Shown here: in pieces, positions 1,099 to 37,700 of the stretch
Numbering within the stretch: the first letter of the stretch is position 1
Layout: each line of letters opens with the position of its first letter
Source: a virus
Virus record (IMG/VR): IMGVR_UViG_3300003322_000128
Span: 34,784 to 98,783 of that record
Strand: one strand, 5' to 3'
DNA length: 64,000 nt
Notes under the pieces: model-generated
Database searches by the model: none
The model's input: the letters and a program-made list of their open reading frames with translations, nothing else
What the model was told of the DNA's origin: nothing
Made by a program: the position numbers and the translations under genes

Positions 1099-1564
1099 CT
1101 TCGCTACTCTCTGCAATGTTACTTTACAGTATGTGAGAAAAGCTCTGTACGCCCTTCTAAGAGCCTCCCAGGGATGCCAATAGGCGACCACCCCAGGACA
1201 CCCGCGAAAGGCCGTTAGACGCGATTTTCACGTTGTGTAGTATCTGATGGAGTGTCAGAGAACCAACGAAAGCGCAGGTCAGACACTGTTTTTCAATCTG
1301 ACAGCGTGTCAGGTTACCGGCCAGTGGTCACAGACTGCTGACTGTGGATAACTTTCTTTACCTAAACGTTACGAAGACACGCCGACATAGGGGTTGACAA
1401 TCTTTAAAAAATTTGCATAGGGGGAAAAGCCGGCCACTTAGGTAAAATTTTGGTAAAGAAAATCAGAAATGGTTGACACAGACTGAGAGTGCCTGTATTT
1501 CGCGCACACTCACACACTCGCCGCATGTTGGGAGCGGCTAGGTTACTCGCGAGTTAACTAACGA

Positions 1565-1580
1565 TGTGACGCACGTCACA
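1565..1580. promoter_or_regulatory. CRP-family binding site
   Basis: Perfect TGTGA-N6-TCACA (TGTGA CGCACG TCACA). Confidence 0.65.
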
Positions 1581-1618
1581 CAAATAGCATGGGAAAGGTT
1601 AGGCATGCTAAACATGGC

Positions 1619-1669
1619 CTCTGACCTGCGAAAACTCACAAAACCGCAGGTCAGAGCATAGGCTAGTGT
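1619..1669 (+). promoter_or_regulatory. Probable early promoter within a 12-bp inverted repeat
   Basis: CTCTGACCTGCG (1619-1630)/CGCAGGTCAGAG (1645-1656); CTCACA-N18-TAGGCT, or alternative -10 TAGTGT. Confidence 0.5.
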
Positions 1670-1686
1670 TTACCTCAGAACGAACG

Positions 1687-1753
1687 GCCCGGAGGAAAGC
1701 CCCGCAAGGGGCGAGTACAAAGGAAGTCGCGGTTACTTGAGAACTAAATAGCG
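1687..1753 (+). promoter_or_regulatory. rRNA-operon-leader-like antitermination element (boxB hairpin + boxA)
   Basis: GCCCGGAGGAAAGCCCCGCAAGGGGCGAGTACAAAGGAAGTCGCGGTTACTTGAGAACTAAATAGCG closely resembles the Streptomyces rrn leader as I recall it; GNRA hairpin 1699-1712, boxA-like 1731-1744. Confidence 0.75.
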
Positions 1754-2122
1754 GGATTCAGAAACACATTACGCACAAGGAAACTCGCGGGTCACTGCCT
1801 AGAGGTCTAGCTAGGAAATCACCCCTTACATTCTGCGAGTTGAATTGACATTCTCGGCACTTTGCCAGGATTAGCGAACGGGCGGTTCTTCCCTTTCCGA
1901 TATGCCAGGAAATATCGACCGTCGAATATAGTGCGATTCCTTTTGGGATAGCGGTAGATATCCAATGCCACTAAAGGGATTCAAGTAGCGAAATCCAGCG
2001 GGTGTTTTGTTTGTCAGTCGAAAGTGCGCCGTGTCCCGATTATCTAGGGACTGTGGCTTTAGACGCTTACCCTTTCGAGCGTCTAGTGTCCACAAAGGAA
2101 TTAGGGAAGAAAGTGAGTCATC

Positions 2123-2452
2123 ATGACGACTGCCGCTCCTGCCAAGAAGACTGCCGCCCCGCGCAAGCGGGCGACTAAGAAGGCTGTCAGCACTCCTCAG
2201 ACGGCCGAACAGACGACGACTGTGTCTGTTGTTGACCCGGACGTCTACGTGCCCCCTACGGGGCTTGCAGAGGGTTTCCAGAGTGATGGGTCCGGCCCGC
2301 TGTTGGATGACCGTCTGACTCCGCGTGCGCTGGAGAACCTGACAGAGCTTGCCACGGACGGAAACACGAACACGGCCCGAAAGTACTGGATTGCCGTGCT
2401 GGCAAAGTACGGCGTCACGGTTCCTTTTGTGCCGGTTGACGAAAGCGAGTAA
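2123..2452 (+). CDS. Hypothetical early protein with histone-like PAKK/KRATKK N-terminus
   Basis: ORF; basic Ala/Lys/Pro-rich N-terminus. Confidence 0.75.
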   Translation: MTTAAPAKKTAAPRKRATKKAVSTPQTAEQTTTVSVVDPDVYVPPTGLAEGFQSDGSGPLLDDRLTPRALENLTELATDGNTNTARKYWIAVLAKYGVTVPFVPVDESE

Positions 2453-2539
2453 AACCGCCGCGCAAAACAACTGAATAGCAATTCCCAAACAAACAACCCC
2501 CTAATTCCTCTGCGGACACTAGAAACCGGAGGAAAAGTA

Positions 2540-2941
2540 ATGGACGCAATGACCGCAAAGGTTGCTCTCCGCATTCTCAAGAAATTGAAGCAGCGTGAGG
2601 CGGAATACTGGGAGGCTCGCCGCTATTGGTATGAAAGCGGTGATGGACGTCCGTCCGATTGGCGAGTTGACCCGGAAACGGGTCGGCACTGGAATGCAGG
2701 CGGTAAGGGTTGGACCTATCCGGAATGCATTCATGGCACTTCCCGTTGGACGGATTATGACAACATTTGTGGCGGGTGTGAGGATGGATATTCCATCTAT
2801 CAACTCGCCATTTGGGAGGCCCAAGAAAAGGTCGCTCAATTCAAGGAACGTGCCGAATGGGTTGGGGCAATGCCTAGTTCCTTTAGGCACACGGAAATGT
2901 ATCATGACGTGCTCGATTGGGTTTTCGAGACCGTCCGGTAA
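2540..2941 (+). CDS. Hypothetical early protein
   Basis: GGAGG SD; CxH...CxxC motif. Confidence 0.8.
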   Translation: MDAMTAKVALRILKKLKQREAEYWEARRYWYESGDGRPSDWRVDPETGRHWNAGGKGWTYPECIHGTSRWTDYDNICGGCEDGYSIYQLAIWEAQEKVAQFKERAEWVGAMPSSFRHTEMYHDVLDWVFETVR

Positions 2942-3015
2942 TTCCAAGCTGTAGGGATTTGGGGGCGTTATCCGAAAGGATGACGTTCCCCATGTCCACA
3001 CAGAGGGGAAACGCA

Positions 3016-3489
3016 ATGCAGCACTACAACCCGACCAAACCGCTTACGTTGGACAACTATGCTATTCAGGTTGACTATTACCTGAATGGTGAAAGCGGCG
3101 AAAAGTGCGCGCGGTTCGGTTCGGCAAAGGAATTTGCCGAATGGATGGACTCATTCGACTACAGTTCGGGTGACATTACTGGCTGGACTGGCGACAGTGC
3201 GACCATGCAGGCGGTAAACAGTTACCGCAATGACAGGCCATACCGCGCAATTCCGGAGTTCATCACGGAATTCAACACGAACGATGGTAGTTCGGAAATC
3301 GTTGGGGCAGACCAATTCCACAATTTGCGTCGCATGTTTACCCGCGACCGCGATAACTACCGCGTTTACCGGCATTACGCCGATGACGCAAAGGTCTACT
3401 CGGTAATGTACGTCGGAAAGGGGGATGCCCGACTTTCTTCCTACGTCTGGCATGTTCCTTTTGGAGCGGATGAAATTCCGATTTCCTGA
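3016..3489 (+). CDS. Hypothetical early protein
   Basis: GAGGGG SD before ATG 3016 within ORF 2917..3489. Confidence 0.75.
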   Translation: MQHYNPTKPLTLDNYAIQVDYYLNGESGEKCARFGSAKEFAEWMDSFDYSSGDITGWTGDSATMQAVNSYRNDRPYRAIPEFITEFNTNDGSSEIVGADQFHNLRRMFTRDRDNYRVYRHYADDAKVYSVMYVGKGDARLSSYVWHVPFGADEIPIS

Positions 3490-3613
3490 AAAGGAACGTG
3501 CGAGAATGAAAGGGGGTGGTTTCCTTGCGACGTAGGCGCAAGCGCAAATTACCCGGGTAAAAACCCAAGCTAATTGATTTGGCCCCGGGCATTCTTCGGA
3601 ATGTTCGGGGAGC

Positions 3614-4051
3614 ATGTCCATTAGAAGGGTGAAGCAAATGGTGGATGAGTGGCATTACTATTCTGACCAATTCGATGCCCGCGAGACTGGGGAGCATGGT
3701 TGGCGGAAATCAAATGTGAAGCCACGGGAAAGCATCCTGCGTAGGGATTCAACACACCGCGCGGGAAGTCGTTGCGGAAAGCTGTGCGTTGACGGGCTGT
3801 GGCCTATTCCTAGGGAATTGACGAGTGTCAAGCCTCCCCAGGGTCCGGGCCCATTCGGATTCACTTCCAATGAATTCGCGTGTGCTTGGTATGTGACGCA
3901 AAACGGCCGGATTTTCAAGCTCATTCGCCACCACGGGAACAATCACAATCTCGTGGTGGAAATTGCTTGGCAGATTCATCAGCCGTATTCATGGATTCCG
4001 AATTACCCCCGGACGCAAGTTTGGGATTGGGTCGGAGTTCAGAGCATCTAG
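3614..4051 (+). CDS. Hypothetical early protein (Trp-rich)
   Basis: ORF with GGGGAG upstream. Confidence 0.65.
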   Translation: MSIRRVKQMVDEWHYYSDQFDARETGEHGWRKSNVKPRESILRRDSTHRAGSRCGKLCVDGLWPIPRELTSVKPPQGPGPFGFTSNEFACAWYVTQNGRIFKLIRHHGNNHNLVVEIAWQIHQPYSWIPNYPRTQVWDWVGVQSI

Positions 4052-4139
4052 TGACATTTAGTGTGTCAGGGGACGCACAAGCCTTTCCGGTTGTGCTTTC
4101 CCCTAATGCATTGAAAGTCAATGCATGAAAGGGGTCAAA

Positions 4140-4319
4140 ATGCGTACCTGCACCGTGAACGGCCGGACGGGCATCATCACTGCACAGAACGGTAAGAGTG
4201 GCGTTCCCGCCACTCAGGTTTTCGTTCTGTTCGATGACAACCGTCCGACCGAATCGGATGCTGCATGGTTCGACGTGTCCGCCGTTCTGCCCACGGGCAT
4301 GGTGACTGTCACGTTCTGA
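4140..4319 (+). CDS. Hypothetical small early protein
   Basis: AAAGGGG SD before ATG 4140. Confidence 0.7.
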   Translation: MRTCTVNGRTGIITAQNGKSGVPATQVFVLFDDNRPTESDAAWFDVSAVLPTGMVTVTF

Positions 4320-4422
4320 GTGTCTGGGGACCGTTCTAAGCGACTCGGAACGGTCCCCCGGCCCGGTTGTCCAACCAAGCCACGAACGGCCGTTAGAACG
4401 GCACAGAGAGGTTTTTTGTACC

Positions 4423-4647
4423 ATGGCACGTACCAAGTGGGAAATCCTGACTGCCCGACTCGAAAAGGCACGGCAGGAAGTTGCCGAACTGGAAAGCATT
4501 ATGCGGGGGATGGAAAACACCCCGGATAACGTTGCATGCTCCGGTTGCGGTGAACAGTTCCGAGTGAATGCCGATTTCGCGCGGCATTTCAAGATTCCGA
4601 ATGAGCAATTGCTCAACACGGGATATTGCCCCAACAATCCGCGATAG
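4423..4647 (+). CDS. Small coiled-coil + zinc-finger-like protein
   Basis: CSGC...H...C motif; GAGAGG SD. Confidence 0.7.
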   Translation: MARTKWEILTARLEKARQEVAELESIMRGMENTPDNVACSGCGEQFRVNADFARHFKIPNEQLLNTGYCPNNPR

Positions 4648-4656
4648 GGGCGAGAA

Positions 4657-4902
4657 ATGGAAAACGCGGAAAACTGCAAGGATTGTCGGACTCCTATCAC
4701 CTTTGCTTATCGCGAATGGTGGGATGAGAACGACGACAATACATGTCCCAAGGGTGGAACGCATTTCCCGTATTTCAAGACGGAACTTGCGCCTACTCCG
4801 GTTTTTTCGACTTCCGGGCCGATAGCGAAGAATCGCGAAAAGCGTTTCGTTCCGCTCCGGGCCCAAAGGGCACAAAGAAGGGGTTTGGTTACTGACGCTT
4901 AG
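4657..4902 (+). CDS. Hypothetical Cys-containing protein
   Basis: CKDC...CP...H motif; packed after previous gene. Confidence 0.65.
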   Translation: MENAENCKDCRTPITFAYREWWDENDDNTCPKGGTHFPYFKTELAPTPVFSTSGPIAKNREKRFVPLRAQRAQRRGLVTDA

Positions 4903-4978
4903 TTGTCTTGGGATTGCCATTCTTTCGGGAATGGCATTGCCCAAAATGTCTAAGGGTTAGGCATTAGAAGGGGCTGCA

Positions 4979-5311
4979 ATGCTTATTCAGATTCTCGACA
5001 TTCTCTCTCGCCAGATGCGGGGTCAGTCACTTACGACTGGTCTTGAAACGGCGCGAGAAATTGAGGCCCTGGTTAGGGAGACTTCCCCTAAGTCTCCCGT
5101 TCGTTCGAATCACTCGGACGAGATTCCGCTTTCGGTCGATATGATTCGCGCGACTGCATGGGCCGAGCGGGCTTTCAATTCCGATGATTTGACGAATTAC
5201 AAGATTCGTGCAATCAAGGAAATCCGCACGAATTGGAATTTGGGCCTTAAGCAGGCTAAGGACATTGCCGATAACGTTTACGGTTCGGCGCCTAAGTCCT
5301 ATTGGGACTAG
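4979..5311 (+). CDS. Protein with ribosomal bL12 (L7/L12) C-terminal-domain-like region
   Basis: KIRAIKEIRTNWNLGLKQAKDIAD matches the L12 CTD signature KIxVIKxVRxxTGLGLKEAKDLVE. Confidence 0.75.
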   Translation: MLIQILDILSRQMRGQSLTTGLETAREIEALVRETSPKSPVRSNHSDEIPLSVDMIRATAWAERAFNSDDLTNYKIRAIKEIRTNWNLGLKQAKDIADNVYGSAPKSYWD

Positions 5312-5403
5312 CTCTCTGCGCTTTATGGTGGTGGCCATTTCGGGCGGGTTTTGAAATGGCCATTCGCCAAATGCGTTAAGGGTTAACGCAGGAAAGGGAA
5401 TCA

Positions 5404-5766
5404 ATGCGTACGGAAATGGTTCACCTCACCAATGCGTTTGTCCGTTACTGCGCTTCCGCTCGGAAGCTTGGTTACGACACTACGGGTTGGGGGCTTACGG
5501 TCGGTTCTAAGACCCAAGGGAACCCCTACAAGGTTGGGGTGAAGGGTGAATGCGGTAAGAGTCTTCCTGGCATGGGAGATGGAGATATCGGCCGGACCCG
5601 TGGCGAGGCTTACGACAGGTTGGTTACCGCCGCGAACGTGCTTGACGACGTGTGCAAGCATCTTTACGGATGTTCCGGAGACGGCTATGCGAGTGAAATG
5701 CCGCATGACACTTTCGTTCGGGAATCTCTGCACGTTTCCGGATTTCATCAGTACTGCAATAACTGA
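5404..5766 (+). CDS. Hypothetical early protein
   Basis: GAAAGGGA SD; ORF. Confidence 0.75.
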   Translation: MRTEMVHLTNAFVRYCASARKLGYDTTGWGLTVGSKTQGNPYKVGVKGECGKSLPGMGDGDIGRTRGEAYDRLVTAANVLDDVCKHLYGCSGDGYASEMPHDTFVRESLHVSGFHQYCNN

Positions 5767-5785
5767 ATAGAAAGGAAAAGACATC

Positions 5786-5977
5786 ATGCGAATTCAGCCG
5801 CGCCAAAGTGTTCAGACTACTTGGAATCGAGCTATCAACGATTCGTTTTTCCGGTTTGAGCATTACGTTATTCCGGGCAAGGAATCCGCCACTTACGTTT
5901 ATCGGCGGGTTTTCGATTCGTGGACTCCCGATGGACGTTGGGAGCTGGAAAAGCTCATTCGGCTCTATGCTGAATAG
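5786..5977 (+). CDS. Hypothetical small protein
   Basis: GAAAGGA SD; ORF. Confidence 0.7.
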   Translation: MRIQPRQSVQTTWNRAINDSFFRFEHYVIPGKESATYVYRRVFDSWTPDGRWELEKLIRLYAE

Positions 5978-6046
5978 CTGAATGTCCGGGGCACAATGTG
6001 TCCCGTGGCATTGTCTATTCAGAGTGAGTAGGCAGGAAAGGGCATC

Positions 6047-6127
6047 ATGCGGAAGATTCTTGGTGACATTGCGCTTACGGTCGTTGTCTTTGTGGGCGTT
6101 ACTGTTGTCTGGAATTGGCTTTTCTGA
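6047..6127 (+). CDS. 26-aa single-TM microprotein MRKILGDIALTVVVFVGVTVVWNWLF
   Basis: Read manually; GGAAAGGG SD; fills the gap between two conserved stem-loops. Confidence 0.65.
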   Translation: MRKILGDIALTVVVFVGVTVVWNWLF

Positions 6128-6191
6128 GTAGCTGAATGCGGCGGGTATGCCTTTATGGATATCCGTTCGCATTGTCTACTTAGGAGGAGCA

Positions 6192-6347
6192 ATGCGGGAA
6201 GTTGCCAGTATCTATCTTTCCAGCAATGGAAAGGAATTCCTGATTTATGACAGAAACGAGCAATTGGTTTCTGTCAAGGCAATTAGCGACCTTGCCGATT
6301 TGGGAGAGACGGTTGTCAATACTGTCTCGGAAGCTATTGAGGAGTAG
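6192..6347 (+). CDS. Hypothetical small protein
   Basis: AGGAGG SD before ATG 6192. Confidence 0.7.
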   Translation: MREVASIYLSSNGKEFLIYDRNEQLVSVKAISDLADLGETVVNTVSEAIEE

Positions 6348-6349
6348 AA

Positions 6350-6688
6350 ATGCCCTACGGAACGATTTCGCCGGAAGTCAAGAATTTCGTCGAAATGCGT
6401 GCAAGGCAGGGGAACGTTTTCGGGCGCTTCGAACTTGAGCCGCAAACGTGTGAATTTCCCGATGACTGCGAAAAGGCGGAAAACTGCATCTGCTTTGTTC
6501 CGGGCCTTTCGCGAATCTCCATTATCGTCGAAGGTGCCCTAGACGAAGAATTCGAAATCCGGGGTGGCGGCTTTGAGGTCAACATTGCCGACTGGATTTC
6601 AGAATTCATGTTCTGTGAGAACGTCGGCAATTACTGGATTATGGTTTCCGACAGTGAGGGAAACCTGACTTACTCGGTAGAGGGGTGA
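6350..6688 (+). CDS. Hypothetical acidic protein
   Basis: GAGGAG SD; ORF. Confidence 0.75.
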   Translation: MPYGTISPEVKNFVEMRARQGNVFGRFELEPQTCEFPDDCEKAENCICFVPGLSRISIIVEGALDEEFEIRGGGFEVNIADWISEFMFCENVGNYWIMVSDSEGNLTYSVEG

Positions 6689-6694
6689 CCAGCA

Positions 6695-7054
6695 ATGGCA
6701 TGGGTTGAATTCACGCCGGGTGTTCCGGACATTGTCCGCGAATACCAAAGCAAGGTTGAGGACACAGAAAATGGAATCACCCTTTATGAAAACATCGGGT
6801 TGATTTCGGCAATTCGAAAGTCCGGGGACCGCTACTGGATTTACGAAACGGATTTCCGGGAAATGCTGGAAATTGACGTCACGGAATTGCAGCCGGGTGA
6901 TGTTATCTGGCATTGCTTGGATGACGGCCCGGTTAAGAGTCACGAACCGTATTCGTCATATCCGACTGAGGAATTGGTTTCTTTTCGGTCTGGCACAGCT
7001 GAACGGTTCGGCAAGCCGCAAAAGTTGGGTGTTTTGAGGGGTGGGCAGTTTTAG
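6695..7054 (+). CDS. Hypothetical protein
   Basis: GAGGGG SD; ORF. Confidence 0.75.
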   Translation: MAWVEFTPGVPDIVREYQSKVEDTENGITLYENIGLISAIRKSGDRYWIYETDFREMLEIDVTELQPGDVIWHCLDDGPVKSHEPYSSYPTEELVSFRSGTAERFGKPQKLGVLRGGQF

Positions 7055-7154
7055 GCAGTAGATTGGTACATAGCTTGCTACAAAAAGGGGCTGTGTGCCT
7101 TTCTAGGGCCCCGGACAATCGAGCCGGGGTCATTGCCTAGGGGAGGTCCTGAAA

Positions 7155-7511
7155 ATGGCTTACAGCGCAACTGAGTGCAAGGGTGACGGCATGGGGGACT
7201 ACGGGCGTCCCTGCAACGGATACGCGCGTACCGAATCGCCGTGTGCGGTATGCCTGCTGGCACACAAGCTCTATTCCACTGAAGAGAATTCGGCCGGGTT
7301 TGTTGAGGTAGAAGAGACAGATAACTTCCCCATTACAGTAATTGCCTATAGAGGAATAAACACAGTAACAGTGAAGGGTATTCGCTGTGACTCAATCAGT
7401 ACTCAGGTAGACAAGCGGGGCAATGCCCATCTGTCCTTTGAGTTCTACGAGAATGCAAACCGAATCGGTTACATTCCTTGCGTCGATTGGTACGAGACGG
7501 TATGCGAGTAA
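7155..7511 (+). CDS. Hypothetical Cys-rich protein
   Basis: GGAGG SD; ORF. Confidence 0.7.
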   Translation: MAYSATECKGDGMGDYGRPCNGYARTESPCAVCLLAHKLYSTEENSAGFVEVEETDNFPITVIAYRGINTVTVKGIRCDSISTQVDKRGNAHLSFEFYENANRIGYIPCVDWYETVCE

Positions 7512-7666
7512 AGGTATGCAGGAAGTGTGCCCATGACATACCCCATCCTTTGGCACATTGGCATGTGTGGTGCCGTTACTGCCATAGGGTAAGGGTATTC
7601 AGGGGACCTAGCTGTAAGGTCTGTTACAGGAAGGCTAGGGCCCTTGTAGCAGACCTGTTCAAATAG
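7502..7666 (+). CDS. Small basic protein with three CxxC motifs
   Basis: CRKC, CRYC, CKVC; overlaps stop of previous gene. Confidence 0.55.
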   Translation: MRVKVCRKCAHDIPHPLAHWHVWCRYCHRVRVFRGPSCKVCYRKARALVADLFK

Positions 7667-7793
7667 GAACTACCCACTATCTTTTGGAAAGCACTAACTA
7701 AAAGTTAGTGTAAATGTAGGGTATTTGTGCGGCTATCTAGGCGCAATTAAGCCGCATTTCTGCCTGAATTCGGGCAAAAACAAGGGAAAAAGC

Positions 7794-7880
7794 ATGTATT
7801 CGCTTGCATTTCTTGCAATTACGGCCCTTTTCCTGATTGCCGCCTACTTTGCCGGGGTATTGCCGGGCGGTATTCAGTAG
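7794..7880 (+). CDS. 28-aa single-TM microprotein MYSLAFLAITALFLIAAYFAGVLPGGIQ
   Basis: Read manually; AAGGGA SD. Confidence 0.6.
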   Translation: MYSLAFLAITALFLIAAYFAGVLPGGIQ

Positions 7881-7900
7881 ATACAGAAAGGTAAATACAC

Positions 7901-8188
7901 ATGCCTATTGCTATTCAGTATATGGATAGGCCCAATTCTCCTAATGGTGCATACTATGGGGGGTATTGTGTGAATGATGGTAGCAATACCGTATTCATAG
8001 AAACCCGGGCTGCAAATAATCTCTTGCCTGTATATGCATGGCTAGGTAATGGAGATAGGGCTATTGGCAGGGAGGTCTATAAGACAGCTCTAGTTATGCC
8101 TAGCGTTACTCTCAATGCCAAGCAGTACAATACCTTGGTATGTTCTATTCCTACTCATGAGCAGAGGGCATATAGCAAAGGAGATTGA
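7901..8188 (+). CDS. Hypothetical protein
   Basis: GAAAGG SD; ORF. Confidence 0.7.
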   Translation: MPIAIQYMDRPNSPNGAYYGGYCVNDGSNTVFIETRAANNLLPVYAWLGNGDRAIGREVYKTALVMPSVTLNAKQYNTLVCSIPTHEQRAYSKGD

Positions 8189-8585: not shown

Positions 8586-8624
8586 GAAAATCCCCACACC
8601 CTTTTTGGGTGTGGGGAAGTCTTT
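8586..8624. terminator. Terminator at the convergence of rightward and leftward blocks
   Basis: AAAA-TCCCCACACC-loop-GGTGTGGGGA; genes converge here. Confidence 0.75.
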
Positions 8625-12131: not shown

Positions 12132-12154
12132 GGGTCTCCTTTTCTATTCACAAG

Positions 12155-12227
12155 AGCCTAGTGTGAGAATCGAACTCACGACCTCTTCCGTACCAAGGAA
12201 GCGTTCTTCCACTGCAACTAACTAGGC
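12155..12227 (-). tRNA. tRNA-Thr(GGT)
   Basis: Cloverleaf: GCCTAGT/ACTAGGC acceptor, CTTCC-TTGGTAC-GGAAG, GTGAG-TTCGATT-CTCAC; CCA not encoded. Confidence 0.92.
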
Positions 12228-12278
12228 AAGTATAAGCTTGCCGGTATCAAGAAAGGAGAATAAAAAGATACCGACCAG

Positions 12279-12350
12279 AGCCAAATAACGGATTCGAACC
12301 GTTTTCTCATCTTTACGAGAGATGCGTTTTTCCTATTAAACTAAGCTGGC
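12279..12350 (-). tRNA. tRNA-Thr(CGT)
   Basis: CATCT-CTCGTAA-AGATG, AACGG-TTCGAAT-CCGTT; one acceptor-stem mismatch. Confidence 0.88.
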
Positions 12351-12355
12351 AAGAG

Positions 12356-12427
12356 AGCCGCCTGGGGATTCCGAGACCCCGACCTGTGCTTTACAAGAGC
12401 ACTGCTCTGCCTCTGAGCTAAGGCGGC
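12356..12427 (-). tRNA. tRNA-Thr(TGT) with atypical T-loop
   Basis: GCCGCCT/AGGCGGC, GTGCT-CTTGTAA-AGCAC; T arm GGGG-TCTCGGAAT-CCCC. Confidence 0.85.
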
Positions 12428-12740: not shown

Positions 12741-13394
12741 TCAGTAGCCGCAACGTGGGGCTGTAACCCAGTTGCCTGCTCCCCTTCCATTATTCCACAA
12801 CTTCCAGAATGCCGCATCCTGTTGTGCAGGTGAGTAATTCATGGCCTTTCCTGAAAGTCCGGTCACTGTGTGCCAAGTGGCATCCATGAACTGATAAGCT
12901 CCTGATGCTCCAGAGCTAGGGTTTAGCGCTCTGTAGTTTCCACCTGACTCATACTTCCGGATACACGCGGCAATTCCTCCTGGGGCCGCGTAATTATTCT
13001 TTGGTTGAGTTGCCCTATGCTTATATACTCGTGGCTTAGAATTTAGCTGACGCTGCTTCCTGGCCTTTTCAGCAGCAGCCGCTAGGGCTGCCTTTCGGGC
13101 TGCTTCTTCACGAGCCTTCTTTTCTTCGGCCCGCTTCTTTGCTTCTGCAATATCCCTTAGGCGCTTCTCTTCAATTGCCTTCTGGTTATTGCGTTTATCA
13201 ATTGCCATTTGTTCAACTTCTGAAACAAGTGGCTGCCGCGTTTCACTTCGTGATGTCCTATGGTCATCTTCTCTGCTATCCGACTGGCTGTCGGCTGCTA
13301 CGACAGGTCTTTCTGTATTACTCTCCACAACTACAAAAGATGTAGTTCCTCCGACTGCAAGGATTGTGGCTAGTGTTGCGATTGTTCTCTTCAT
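12741..13394 (-). CDS. Secreted/anchored Rpf-like lytic transglycosylase
   Basis: N-terminal signal/TM, charged helical linker, CIRKYESGGNY...GASGAYQFMDATW...AQQDA domain. Confidence 0.85.
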   Translation of the reverse strand: MKRTIATLATILAVGGTTSFVVVESNTERPVVAADSQSDSREDDHRTSRSETRQPLVSEVEQMAIDKRNNQKAIEEKRLRDIAEAKKRAEEKKAREEAARKAALAAAAEKARKQRQLNSKPRVYKHRATQPKNNYAAPGGIAACIRKYESGGNYRALNPSSGASGAYQFMDATWHTVTGLSGKAMNYSPAQQDAAFWKLWNNGRGAGNWVTAPRCGY

Positions 13395-34700: not shown

Positions 34701-37700
34701 AGTTCAGAAGTTCAGGAATTGATGGTAAAGGTTCGTGCCCAGGTTGATTTCTCAGATGCAGAGAGCACCATGAGAGAGCAAATGCGCCAGTTCAAGGATA
34801 CCTTTAACAAGGTTGCCAATAACGAATTTGGTCAGGGAACTTGGGAAGGCTTTACTCGCGTATTCTCTGGTCGTGGAGATATTAACAAGAATGCTGCTGA
34901 ACGTGGTAAGGGAATGGCTGAGGAATTTTGGACGGGATTCCAGGCACAAACAACACAGTCAGAAAAGAAGGATTACTTCAGTAAGTTCTTCAAGTCTGTA
35001 GAGGCCGAACAGCATGAGGCTTGGGGTCGTCTTGGTAATTCTAACCGTAAGGACCTTCAGAAGGTTGGTATTGACTCATGGCAGGAATTTGCTCAGGCTT
35101 ACACAGACGCTCAGAACATGACTGATGTGGAGTTTAAGTTTGCGTGGGGTGATGGTGATATTGAGCAGGCAAAGAAGGTTAAGGCAGCTTTGAACGGTCT
35201 TGGTTCAGAGACAACCCGATATGCCGAGAAGCACATTGATGCGGAGAAGTATATTGCTCAGGCTATTGCTAAGAAGAATAACATGTCTGATGAAGATATC
35301 AAGCGTGTCCACACCCTTGCTGACCTTTATAACATTCTTGATATGTCGTTCTCAACAGTAACTGAGGCACAAAAGGGTTACAACGAAGCAATCATGAACT
35401 ACAATAGACAAGGTACAAAATTGTCTAAGGATGAGCAGCTTCGTATCCTTAACATCTATCGTGCAAATGCTGGGTTGACAAAGGCTACCAGTATTGAGCA
35501 GGGATTTGGAGATGCAGTTGACTCCGTAACCGGAAAGGTTAAGGAGAATGGACAGGCCATGGAAAATTCTGTGGCAAGCATCGACGAATGGGCTAGCGCC
35601 AGACAGAAGGCTATGTCTGGGGCTCAGGATTATGCATTCCAGGCCGCTGAGGATATTTGGCAGGAGAAGGCGGATGCGGAAACTGATGCTATTGAAAAGC
35701 GGGGTCAGCAAAGAGAGGATGCTTTGGATGACCAGGCTGAGCGTCAGGATAAGCGTTTTGATGATAGAGCTGATGCGGCGGATAAGAGATTCGACAGGCG
35801 TTCAAAGGCTCTTGATAAGCGCTGGGACAAGATTGATGAAGATTTCGATAACAGGTGGGATGCTCGTCTAAAGAGAGAAGAGGACGCCTATAACAAGAAG
35901 ATTGACAACATCAAGAAGACAATGGATGCTGAAGAGAAGGCTGAGGAGCAGCGTCAGAAGATTTTCGAGGCTGAAAAGACACGTCTCGAAAGAATGGCGT
36001 CCATGGCAAATTCTCAGATTGACTTCAATGTTGCTGTAAATACTGGAAATCTTGATGAGGCTGCAAAGATTGCTAATACTATGCAGTCTACAGAAGCTGG
36101 TTGGTCTCTTGATGATGCGGCGGCCTCTAGTCAGTCTCAGTCTGATGCTCGTAAGGAGCAAATGCAGGGACAGATTGATACCCTTGAGGCAGCACGAGAT
36201 AAGCGTATTGATGACCTAAAGAAGGTTGAGGAGGCTGAAAAGAAGGCTCTTCAGGATAAGAAGGAGCGTGAACAGGAAGCTCTTCAGGCTGAGCGTGAGC
36301 GCTATAACAAGGCTTTGGAAGCAGAGCGTGAACGTTACCGTAAGGGAATTGAAGCACAAAAGAAGGCTATTCAGGAGCAAACTCAGCGTGATACTGAGGC
36401 TAAGCGTAAGGAGCTAGAGCGTCAGAAGAAGACGCTTGAGCTTGAACTTTTGGCAATTCGTGCATCTGTTCCACGTAATAAGAAGGAATATGATGCGCAA
36501 ATCAAGACTATTGAAAAGATGTACTCCAAGTATGGTGTAAATCTTAAGGCTCAGGGTAACCAGTGGTCAAAGATTATTGGTGATGGTCTAACTGCTCATA
36601 TTAAGGAAGCTTCTGCCGACCTTCAGAATGAAATCAAGTGGAAGAACATTGGTAATGCCGTAACTCAGAAGATGGTTGACGGTGGATTCAACATGTCTAC
36701 CGCAGAATTTATGAAGTGGGTTACCACAGGTGAGCTTCCAAAGAAGTACAGTGCACCTGCTAAGCCAAAGACCCGCCACACTGGTGGTCCGGTAAATGGT
36801 TCTTCTAAGTATGACAATCGTGGTGGACGTAACTGGGGAACGGGTCTTCGTCGTGATGAGTCAATGATGCTTCTGAAGAATGACGAGTATGTTCTTAATG
36901 GAAAGGCTCACAAGGCTCTTGGTACTGACTACCTAGATAATATCAATAAGACTGGTGGTCGTGGAACTGGTGGAATTGGTGGCGCTGGACTTGGTCTAGT
37001 GGGAATTTATGCGGCAGCAGCGGAAGGAATGTATGAAGCAGCGGCAGATGCAGCAATTCAGGCAGCCGGAAACAATGCCATGGGATTTGGTATTGACGGA
37101 ATGGCTATTGCTGGTAAGGCTGGAACATACGGCGGGGTTCCGCTAACAGCCACACAGCTTCAGAATGCAGCTACCATTATTGGTGTAGGTAAGGGAATGG
37201 GTGCAACTACAAATGACCTTATCGTTTCCCTTATGACTGCAATGCAGGAGTCTACTCTTCGTAATCTGAATTATGGTGACCGTGACTCTTTGGGTCTGTT
37301 CCAGCAGCGTCCTTCTCAGGGTTGGGGTACTCCTCAGCAGATTATGAATCCTTCATATGCTGCACGTAAGTTCTTTGAGCACTTGCTAGCAATGAAGGGC
37401 CGAAATAAGTTGAGTCTAACACAGCAGGCTCAAAGAGTTCAGCGTTCTGCATTCCCTGAGGCTTATGCAAAGTGGGAGGCAATGGCACGTCAGGTTGTTG
37501 CTGGAACTTCGTTCCAGCCGTTTGCTGGTTTGACAGGCGGAGGAAAGGTTCGTCCTGTTAATGGGCCGGTTTCTCGTGACTACGCTCATCACACTAATTT
37601 GCCAAGAGCTACAGACTTCGGTGTTGGTGTCGGTACTCCAGTTCGTTCAGCTATGAATGGACAGGTTATTACCTCTGCCGACCTTAAGGGTCCGGGCGGA

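Follow-up and report, generated by a model that had tools for sequence, protein, structure and literature searches.

A phage-borne homologue of the Streptomyces rRNA operon leader heads a terminal gene block and may load host anti-termination factors

Why does a phage genome carry a sequence that otherwise belongs upstream of ribosomal RNA genes? This question arises from a 64,000-nt stretch of viral DNA, hereafter called the window, which comprises positions 34,784 to 98,783 of the 98.8-kb IMG/VR record IMGVR_UViG_3300003322_000128. The record derives from a root metagenome, and the window is in places approximately 80% identical to the lytic, ~130-kb Stanwilliamsviridae phages of Streptomyces, its relatives including Faust, TunaTartare, Sham, Gilson, Blueeyedbeauty, and Annadreamy. 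The original prediction, made from the letters of the window, held that a captured rrn leader with boxB and boxA lies at 1687-1753 and recruits the host rRNA anti-termination machinery to an early operon. The letters quoted for the element are present at this place, and the Streptomyces pre-16S leader given there for comparison is letter for letter that of Streptomyces sp. NBC_00114 (L046:3378-3442). Using pairwise blastn, we found 81% identity (80.6%) between window 1687-1753 and L046 3377-3441 (67 columns, of which 2 are gaps; E 9e-13), which bears out the claimed colinearity over ~65 nt.

To place the match in the host, Streptomyces chromosomes were searched with BLASTN as the prediction had suggested, and the matches indeed lie just upstream of 16S genes; matches in actinophages were found as well. 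An 81-nt query gave 6-7 matches per genome in three complete Streptomyces genomes (E ~3e-10). In genome G001, all six matches are located 162-163 nt upstream of its six 16S genes, and according to Rfam the motif is followed by the 16S gene at a distance of 170-200 nt in five loci from complete genomes. More than 120 contigs, all of them from Streptomyces, matched a gapped 23-base pattern derived from the element, many of them at their ends. In a tally of host-family genomes, 24 of 151 had a match; since most of these genomes are drafts, whose contigs tend to end at rrn leaders, and scoring was limited to six candidates per genome, this count is not to be read as absence of the leader from the other genomes.

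The viral copies are not followed by rRNA. As predicted, there is no rRNA gene after the element, and neither the window nor eight other viral loci carrying the element hold one, which makes the element a phage-borne copy and not an rrn leader itself. In the window, only three tRNA-Thr genes were found; they stand in a row (GGT, CGT, TGT) at 12154-12427 on the minus strand, opposite to the operon described below. No ORF of at least 40 aa in the ORF list of the window overlaps the element. Likewise, no Rfam family, HK022 put and EAR included, reached the gathering score in the window, and 1300-2200 gave no match even when E-values of up to 1 were allowed. Since the element also occupies the syntenic place in isolated relatives with complete genome sequences, an assembly artefact is excluded. 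Judged by its letters, the element is truly homologous to the leader of the host rrn operon, with hairpin, boxA, and boxC, and it precedes a block of small genes in sense orientation. The features of the locus are listed in Table 1.

Table 1. Features at the leader-like element and the operon behind it; positions refer to the window.
Feature	Position	Strand	Basis
Upstream promoter-like site, TTGACA-17 nt-TATTTC	1473-1501	+	By eye; putative function
Proximal promoter-like site, CTCACA-18 nt-TAGGCT	1635-1664	+	By eye; within inverted repeat; putative
5' single-stranded conserved motif GCCCGGAGGAAA, CGGAGG core	1687-1698	+	Identical to host leader
CGGAGGAAA	1690-1698	+	Coordinates read from sequence
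boxB-like hairpin, 5-bp stem GCCCC/GGGGC, GNRA loop GCAA	1699-1712	+	Predicted fold, -11.4 kcal/mol
Purine-rich conserved spacer AGUACAAAGGAAG	1714-1726	+	Identical to host leader
boxA-like GGUUACUUGAGAA, 8-nt core GGUUACUU	1731-1743	+	Comparison with host leader and spacer
boxC-like / NusA-type site GAACUAAAUAG	1741-1751	+	Overlaps boxA tail
Untranslated structured leader, ~370 nt, no credible ORF	1755-2122	+	RNAalifold, 10 relatives
Operon, ~16 small genes of unknown function	2123-8188	+	ORF list
Bidirectional terminator-like hairpin closing the operon	8591-8617	.	11-bp stem, 8 G-C pairs

The motifs of the element include the hairpin, the boxA core, and GAACUNAAUAG. Comparison of 22 phage and host sequences revealed that the single-stranded motifs CGGAGG, AGUAC-AAAGG, and UUGAGAACUNAAYAG are near-invariant. 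Within the 5' motif, C2, G3, G4, and A5 are invariant and G6, G7, and A8 are conserved in at least 90% of the sequences. The spacer motif AGUACAAAGGAAG, which is missing from the copy in the host 16S-23S spacer, has invariant A26, G27, C30, A32, A33, G34, and A37, and in the boxC-like part TTGA-AA-T-AA-AG is invariant in all 22 sequences. A GNRA loop is present in 20 of the 22. The hairpin is kept despite changed letters, as had been noted for the window: the phage has GCCCC-GCAA-GGGGC and the host GCCC-GAGA-GGGU.

Assignment of the boxA is based on the host operon. A second host copy of the boxA and boxC parts, CGUUGUUUGAGAACUGCACAG, lies in the 16S-23S spacer directly before the 23S gene, and this is the hallmark of an rrn boxA, which is elsewhere defined by its copies in leader and spacer (PMC13753749). 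The boxA of the host leader reads CGUUCCUUGAGAA and that of the spacer, just before 23S, CGUUGUUUGAGAA; compared copy by copy, the phage has GGUUACUUGAGAACU, versus CGUUCCUUGAGAACU in the host leader and CGUUGUUUGAGAACU in the host spacer. Apart from its first base, the phage GGUUACUUGAGAA departs from the host only where the leader and spacer copies differ from each other, and wherever both host copies agree the phage boxA corresponds to their consensus GUU-N-Y-UUGAGAACU. The boxA consensus is AUGAUCUUUGAAA in B. subtilis and UGCUCUUUAACA in E. coli (PMC13753749).

The reading as boxB-boxA thus held for the homology of hairpin and boxA to the host, but the 5' boxA core turned out not to be the most conserved part. 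It is the first 8 nt of boxA that NusB-NusE reads (PMC3177189). In this 8-nt core, the window has A in place of the C of the host leader, and in phages of the Annadreamy, Faust, and Sham types the core is largely lost (AACACAUU, AACCGAUU; no GUU) with the 3' half intact. The part most conserved across the phages is this 3' half, UUGAGAACUNAAYAG, which corresponds to the boxA tail and the NusA-type boxC. The degenerate core in some types suggests that NusB/E loading may not be the conserved function, and the pattern of conservation may reflect an interaction with NusA rather than with NusB. In M. tuberculosis, the KH domains of NusA bind a high-affinity site just after the 8-nt core, with AUA being critical; papers differ in their name for the bound region, either "boxC" or "boxA" (PMC2724277, PMC3993855). 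The phage sequence at the NusA-type site is AAAUAG.

Variation in the hairpin allowed us to ask at which level selection acts. Stem arms were counted from the loop outward and then on a model-fitted alignment (MAFFT misaligns the variable hairpin). Among 16 distinct stems, the arms form 4.56 consecutive pairs with their own partner vs. 1.75 with foreign arms. In the model-fitted alignment of 29 sequence matches, a kind of alignment that leans towards structure, all four stem pairs change on both sides; paired cells amount to 93% compared with 65% in shuffles, and none of 500 shuffles reached the observed score. The stems vary widely (GCCCC/GGGGC, GGCCC/GGGCC, GGCGGG/CCCGCU, GGGGGG/UCCCCC, GCCU/AGGU, CCCG/CGGG). 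Their polarity flips between strands, and G-U pairs occur, which would be C-A on the opposite strand. This covariation, together with the strand flips and the G-U pairs, points to selection on the RNA of the sense strand. Host leaders vary in the stem and nowhere else. Between phage groups the flanks are wholly different and the motifs invariant. The 101-nt region as a whole folds no better than shuffles (z -0.24), so that structure is predicted for the small hairpin only, which is what one would expect if proteins bind the site in single-stranded form. The aligned copies thus demonstrate that both the structure of the RNA and its single-stranded motifs are under selection.

To determine how widely the element is distributed, we searched phage records with both versions of the leader. 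The 81-nt query matched 42 phage records, all from Streptomyces phages, and the host leader matched 94, adding Camvirus (Joe, Amela), Ibantik, and Flowerpowervirus; the carriers belong to Stanwilliamsviridae, Arquatrovirinae, and Beephvirinae and include Ibantik. In the 130-kb group, the element is found on the plus strand ~6 kb from the right end, and in the Likavirus group (~50 kb, Arquatrovirinae), which is unrelated to the 130-kb group, on the minus strand ~700 nt from the right end. In every case examined (ten Stanwilliamsviridae as well as Likavirus, Camvirus, Flowerpowervirus, and Ibantik), the element is in sense orientation and occupies a large gap without annotated genes, with promoter-like sequences on one side and the first gene of a terminal operon on the other. 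In Joe and Ibantik, the only ORFs in this gap are weak calls on the opposite strand. With a covariance model derived from 12 sequences, exactly one copy was detected in every one of five whole phage records, and a boxC-motif pattern with one mismatch allowed detected one copy in the 98.8-kb record; no second copy was found in the latter or in the five other phage records. These comparisons establish homology to the host leader, position, orientation, and recurrence in unrelated phages.

Two of these loci bear on what the element may serve. In Lannister, the operon headed by the element includes an Ocr-like anti-restriction gene, which fits early expression. In an uncultured Streptomyces-type phage contig (L126; IMG/VR 3300046616_000205), the element at 2882-2945 lies behind TTGACA-18-TAAAGT and 48 nt ahead of 30 same-strand tRNA genes that extend over 7 kb (L126:2830-9961). 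This tRNA array is a largely untranslated unit and thus of the kind that an rrn-type boxA is thought to protect from Rho.

Two promoter-like sites precede the element in the window (Table 1), neither of which was picked up by a strict promoter consensus scan. The upstream site overlaps a 35-nt block that is also present in phage Faust. The proximal site, which has a weak -35, would start an RNA ~15-25 nt before the element. At the place of the proximal site, relatives have TTGACA/TTGCAA-17/18-TAGAGT/GATAGT or a host-like block, CTGATAGAGTCGGA. Clear TTGACA-17/18-TAGAGT sites precede the element by 20-40 nt in relatives, and over all cases examined the distance to a site of this general type is 15-40 nt. 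Seven 130-kb phages, namely Gilson, Kenrey, Forrest, Faust, Beuffert, Blueeyedbeauty, and Annadreamy, copy the host -10/+1 block CTGATAGAGTCGGA(A/G)ACG, which is absent from the window. The 5' flank of the window element (CAGAACGAACGG, 1676-1695) is of the Arquatrovirinae type (L150, L151, and L123 were compared) and absent from the closest 130-kb relatives and from the host. This suggests module exchange between phages, in which the leader module would move from one lineage to another.

RNA-seq contigs from two runs of one plant-metagenome study are 98-99% identical to 1713-2031. They cover nothing else of 1300-4300, and at a depth of 2-2.5 and with no DNA control they show neither RNA ends, strand, nor level; uncovered parts are not evidence of absence. 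The same two runs also hold contigs of the host rrn leader. We take the phage contigs as a weak lead towards a stable leader RNA.

Downstream of the element, RNAalifold with 10 relatives predicts 74 pairs in the conserved, structured leader, 20 of them with compensatory changes, including a long-range helix of around 1772-1776 with 2023-2027. The operon that follows is syntenic with annotated genes in Faust, TunaTartare, Sham, and Beuffert. For ten of its proteins, Pfam gave no family above cut-off and PHROG no function. A 110-aa operon protein (4979-5311, plus strand) weakly resembles the C-terminal domain of ribosomal protein L7/L12 (24.3 bits, below the cut-off of 25.9). The expectation that no N-like protein would be involved agrees with these searches, which found none among the ten proteins, although small arginine-rich proteins can escape them. 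The terminal repeat of Faust is only ~770 bp, and thus the operon simply represents the right-end block of the genome.

The description of the operon as hairpin-dense also proved accurate, as very stable hairpins occupy the intergenic gaps of this block of roughly 6-6.5 kb. The hairpins, present in most of the gaps, have predicted energies of -26 to -47 kcal/mol (z -2.5 to -7), and the majority of them lack U tracts. Between 2942 and 7900, nearly every gap has a stable hairpin or branched structure, with -47 kcal/mol reached in 124 nt, and the 389-nt gap at 7512-7900 reaches -150 kcal/mol. The hairpin that closes the operon has a T run on both strands, and minus-strand genes converge there. 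Since mycobacterial RNA polymerase terminates only with a U tract (PMC3993855), most of the operon hairpins may not be terminators; they may instead act in RNA processing or stability. For the early region of phiC31, terminator hairpins that lack U tails have been reported (Ingham 1995, as cited in PMC3993855).

What, then, would a single leader copy do for the phage? On balance, we consider it probable that it represents an rrn-type Nus-factor loading site which renders host polymerase termination-resistant. Host RNA polymerase would transcribe the leader copy, and the host rrn anti-termination complex would load onto the elongating enzyme. NusB-S10 would bind the boxA-like GGUUACUU(GAGAA) and NusA the GAACUAAAUAG that overlaps it, the complex would take up NusG and accessory factors, and the GNRA hairpin and the flanking purine motifs would complete the platform. 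The polymerase thus modified would resist Rho and hairpin terminators, elongate fast, and be carried through the 370-nt folded leader and the 6-kb operon with its stable intergenic hairpins, so that a phage N-type protein would not be needed. It may also chaperone the folding of the leader RNA.

This rrn-type anti-termination reading draws on several lines of evidence: the colinear 81% match to a host in which all copies are rrn leaders; the second host copy of the boxA and boxC parts before 23S; the single sense copy per genome with promoter-like sequences before it and a terminal operon after it; the covarying hairpin and the invariant motifs between wholly different flanks; the tRNA array of L126, the long structured leader, and the hairpin-rich gaps; the phiC31 report of terminators without U tails; and the precedent of the T7 boxA behind early promoters. 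Transcription from a nearby promoter, factor binding, and anti-termination are the steps that we infer from them. A boxA can also repress, as it does at E. coli suhB (PMC5725501).

The structured domain that follows the element and is closed by a long-range helix raises the alternative of a module for RNA folding, processing, or stability. In this case, a ~300-nt RNA would be chaperoned and excised by the same host factors, or by RNases, as the rrn complex does with pre-16S, or the 5' hairpin would block 5'-end-dependent decay, and anti-termination would be secondary. The RNA contigs of both runs end at the 3' side of this helix, and the rrn complex aids formation of the leader-trailer helix (PMC10250234). 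We nevertheless regard this alternative as unlikely: Likavirus keeps the element with only ~120 nt between it and the first gene, the element of L126 precedes tRNAs, and the support from RNA consists of the shallow contigs of one study described above. Somewhat related, and doubtful in our view, is a full pseudo-rrn operon consisting of an rrn-type promoter, a Nus-loading leader, a ~300-nt structured RNA replacing 16S, and a processing-type closing helix. If this applied, the early transcript would be treated as pre-rRNA, i.e., it would be made at rRNA speed, Rho-proof, and coupled to growth rate, and rRNA-processing enzymes would cut out a stable functional phage ncRNA and processed early messages.

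That seven phages also copy the host -10/+1 block could mean that a strong, growth-rate-tuned rrn promoter was the selected part and that the leader was carried along or tunes promoter escape. This is improbable, as the window, Sham, TunaTartare, and the Arquatrovirinae keep the leader despite other promoters, and conservation and RNA covariation extend at least 60 nt past any start site. Near-host binding motifs behind strong promoters would also suit a decoy, in which abundant early leader RNA titrates NusB, S10, and NusA from host rrn operons and thereby stops ribosome synthesis; lambda boxA reportedly competes for a host factor (Friedman 1990, as cited in PMC2724277). Such titration, like a speeding of transcription-driven DNA entry, had been raised in the original prediction and is conjectural here. 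The presence of one copy per genome argues against such a role, and the positions at the operon head and before the tRNA array fit action in cis better, so that a decoy appears quite improbable. Finally, E-values of ~1e-10 to 1e-13, syntenic conservation across diverged flanks, and compensatory changes in the hairpin exclude a chance resemblance and make it extremely improbable that coincidence or a recent, non-functional scrap of host DNA accounts for the element.

How the element relates to known systems is clearest for its source. In the Streptomyces rrn operon, the last of the tandem promoters is followed by a nut-like leader, which consists of hairpin, boxA, and boxC and precedes 16S by ~165 nt. 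The phage element shares CGGAGGAAAG, the GNRA hairpin, AGUACAAAGGAAG, and GUUNCUUGAGAACUNAAYAG with it, colinear over ~65 nt, and many phage relatives also copy the -10/+1 block. In contrast to the host copies, those of phages vary far more and drive protein genes, a structured leader, or tRNAs. The rrn nut site of M. tuberculosis and its NusA-RNA complex were reportedly treated by Arnvig in 2004 and Beuth in 2005; that work concerns a host operon and not a phage. A sequence of the GAGAACUNAAUAG type is reported to be the high-affinity NusA KH1-KH2 site in this actinobacterial rrn leader.

Lambda nut sites share boxA with rrn. Like the phage element, nutL and nutR are cis RNA sites near a promoter with a boxA and a GNRA-type hairpin, and they assemble Nus factors for processive anti-termination with N (PMC2724277, PMC2800207). 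Unlike lambda nut, which is arranged as boxA-spacer-boxB, the element has the hairpin before boxA, as in rrn, and there is no N-like candidate among the ten operon proteins searched. Actinobacterial NusA lacks the AR domains used by N (PMC3993855).

A closer parallel is found in T7, in which a boxA lies behind the early promoters A0-A3 and mutations in it have a phenotype (Savalia 2010, as cited in PMC3709561). The suggestion of an undescribed system was therefore overstated, as this source already treats T7 boxA anti-termination as genetically validated. Both cases have an rrn-type boxA in a lytic phage; in T7 it lies in an early leader made by host polymerase and acts without an N protein, which is presumed for the phages studied here. 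T7 copies the short E. coli boxA, whereas here a whole actinobacterial leader is copied, sometimes with its promoter, in a different host phylum. By analogy, we propose that the element works most like the T7 boxA and less like lambda nut. The boxA at E. coli suhB and at CRISPR arrays is likewise a portable module, which protects or regulates non-rRNA transcripts (PMC5725501, PMC13753749); unlike the phage element, these are chromosomal and gammaproteobacterial, and the outcome at suhB is repression. A full-text literature search of partial coverage found no published rrn-leader copy in actinophages. A phage boxA of the T7 kind is thus known, and the copying of a whole actinobacterial leader in actinophages appears to be new.

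If the anti-termination reading holds, many phages of Streptomyces, and probably some mycobacteriophages, take over elongation with only a 65-nt RNA copied from the host. The element would then offer a simple handle on actinobacterial rrn anti-termination, which has hardly been studied outside M. tuberculosis NusA, with the phage copies serving as a natural mutational map of the positions that must stay, and Streptomyces engineering could gain a portable part for driving transcripts that are long or untranslated. The element also explains why these phage genomes have large "empty" gaps at their ends.

To judge from shorter matches, the theme is probably not confined to Streptomyces. In the actinobacterial genomes G201 and G253, the 19-mer TTGAGAACUCAAUAGUGUG is located ~150 nt before 16S, and this same 19-mer (TTGAGAACTCAATAGTGTG) occurs, as an exact match, in Mycobacterium phage MrMagoo (L154), ~1.27 kb from the right end on the minus strand and pointing inward. 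Related motifs were found in contigs L129, L134, and L138, with no relatives of L129 and L134 among named phages. Other candidates were rejected: the viral pattern scan also gave L125, L131, and L133, which resemble chance matches in AT-rich coding DNA, and in L155 a provirus call apparently includes a host rrn leader. The viral contig L129 also holds a match to a Hammerhead type II ribozyme on the minus strand (12910-12997; 38.4 bits compared with the Rfam cut-off of 37), which lies ~750 nt downstream of its boxA/boxC-like motif.
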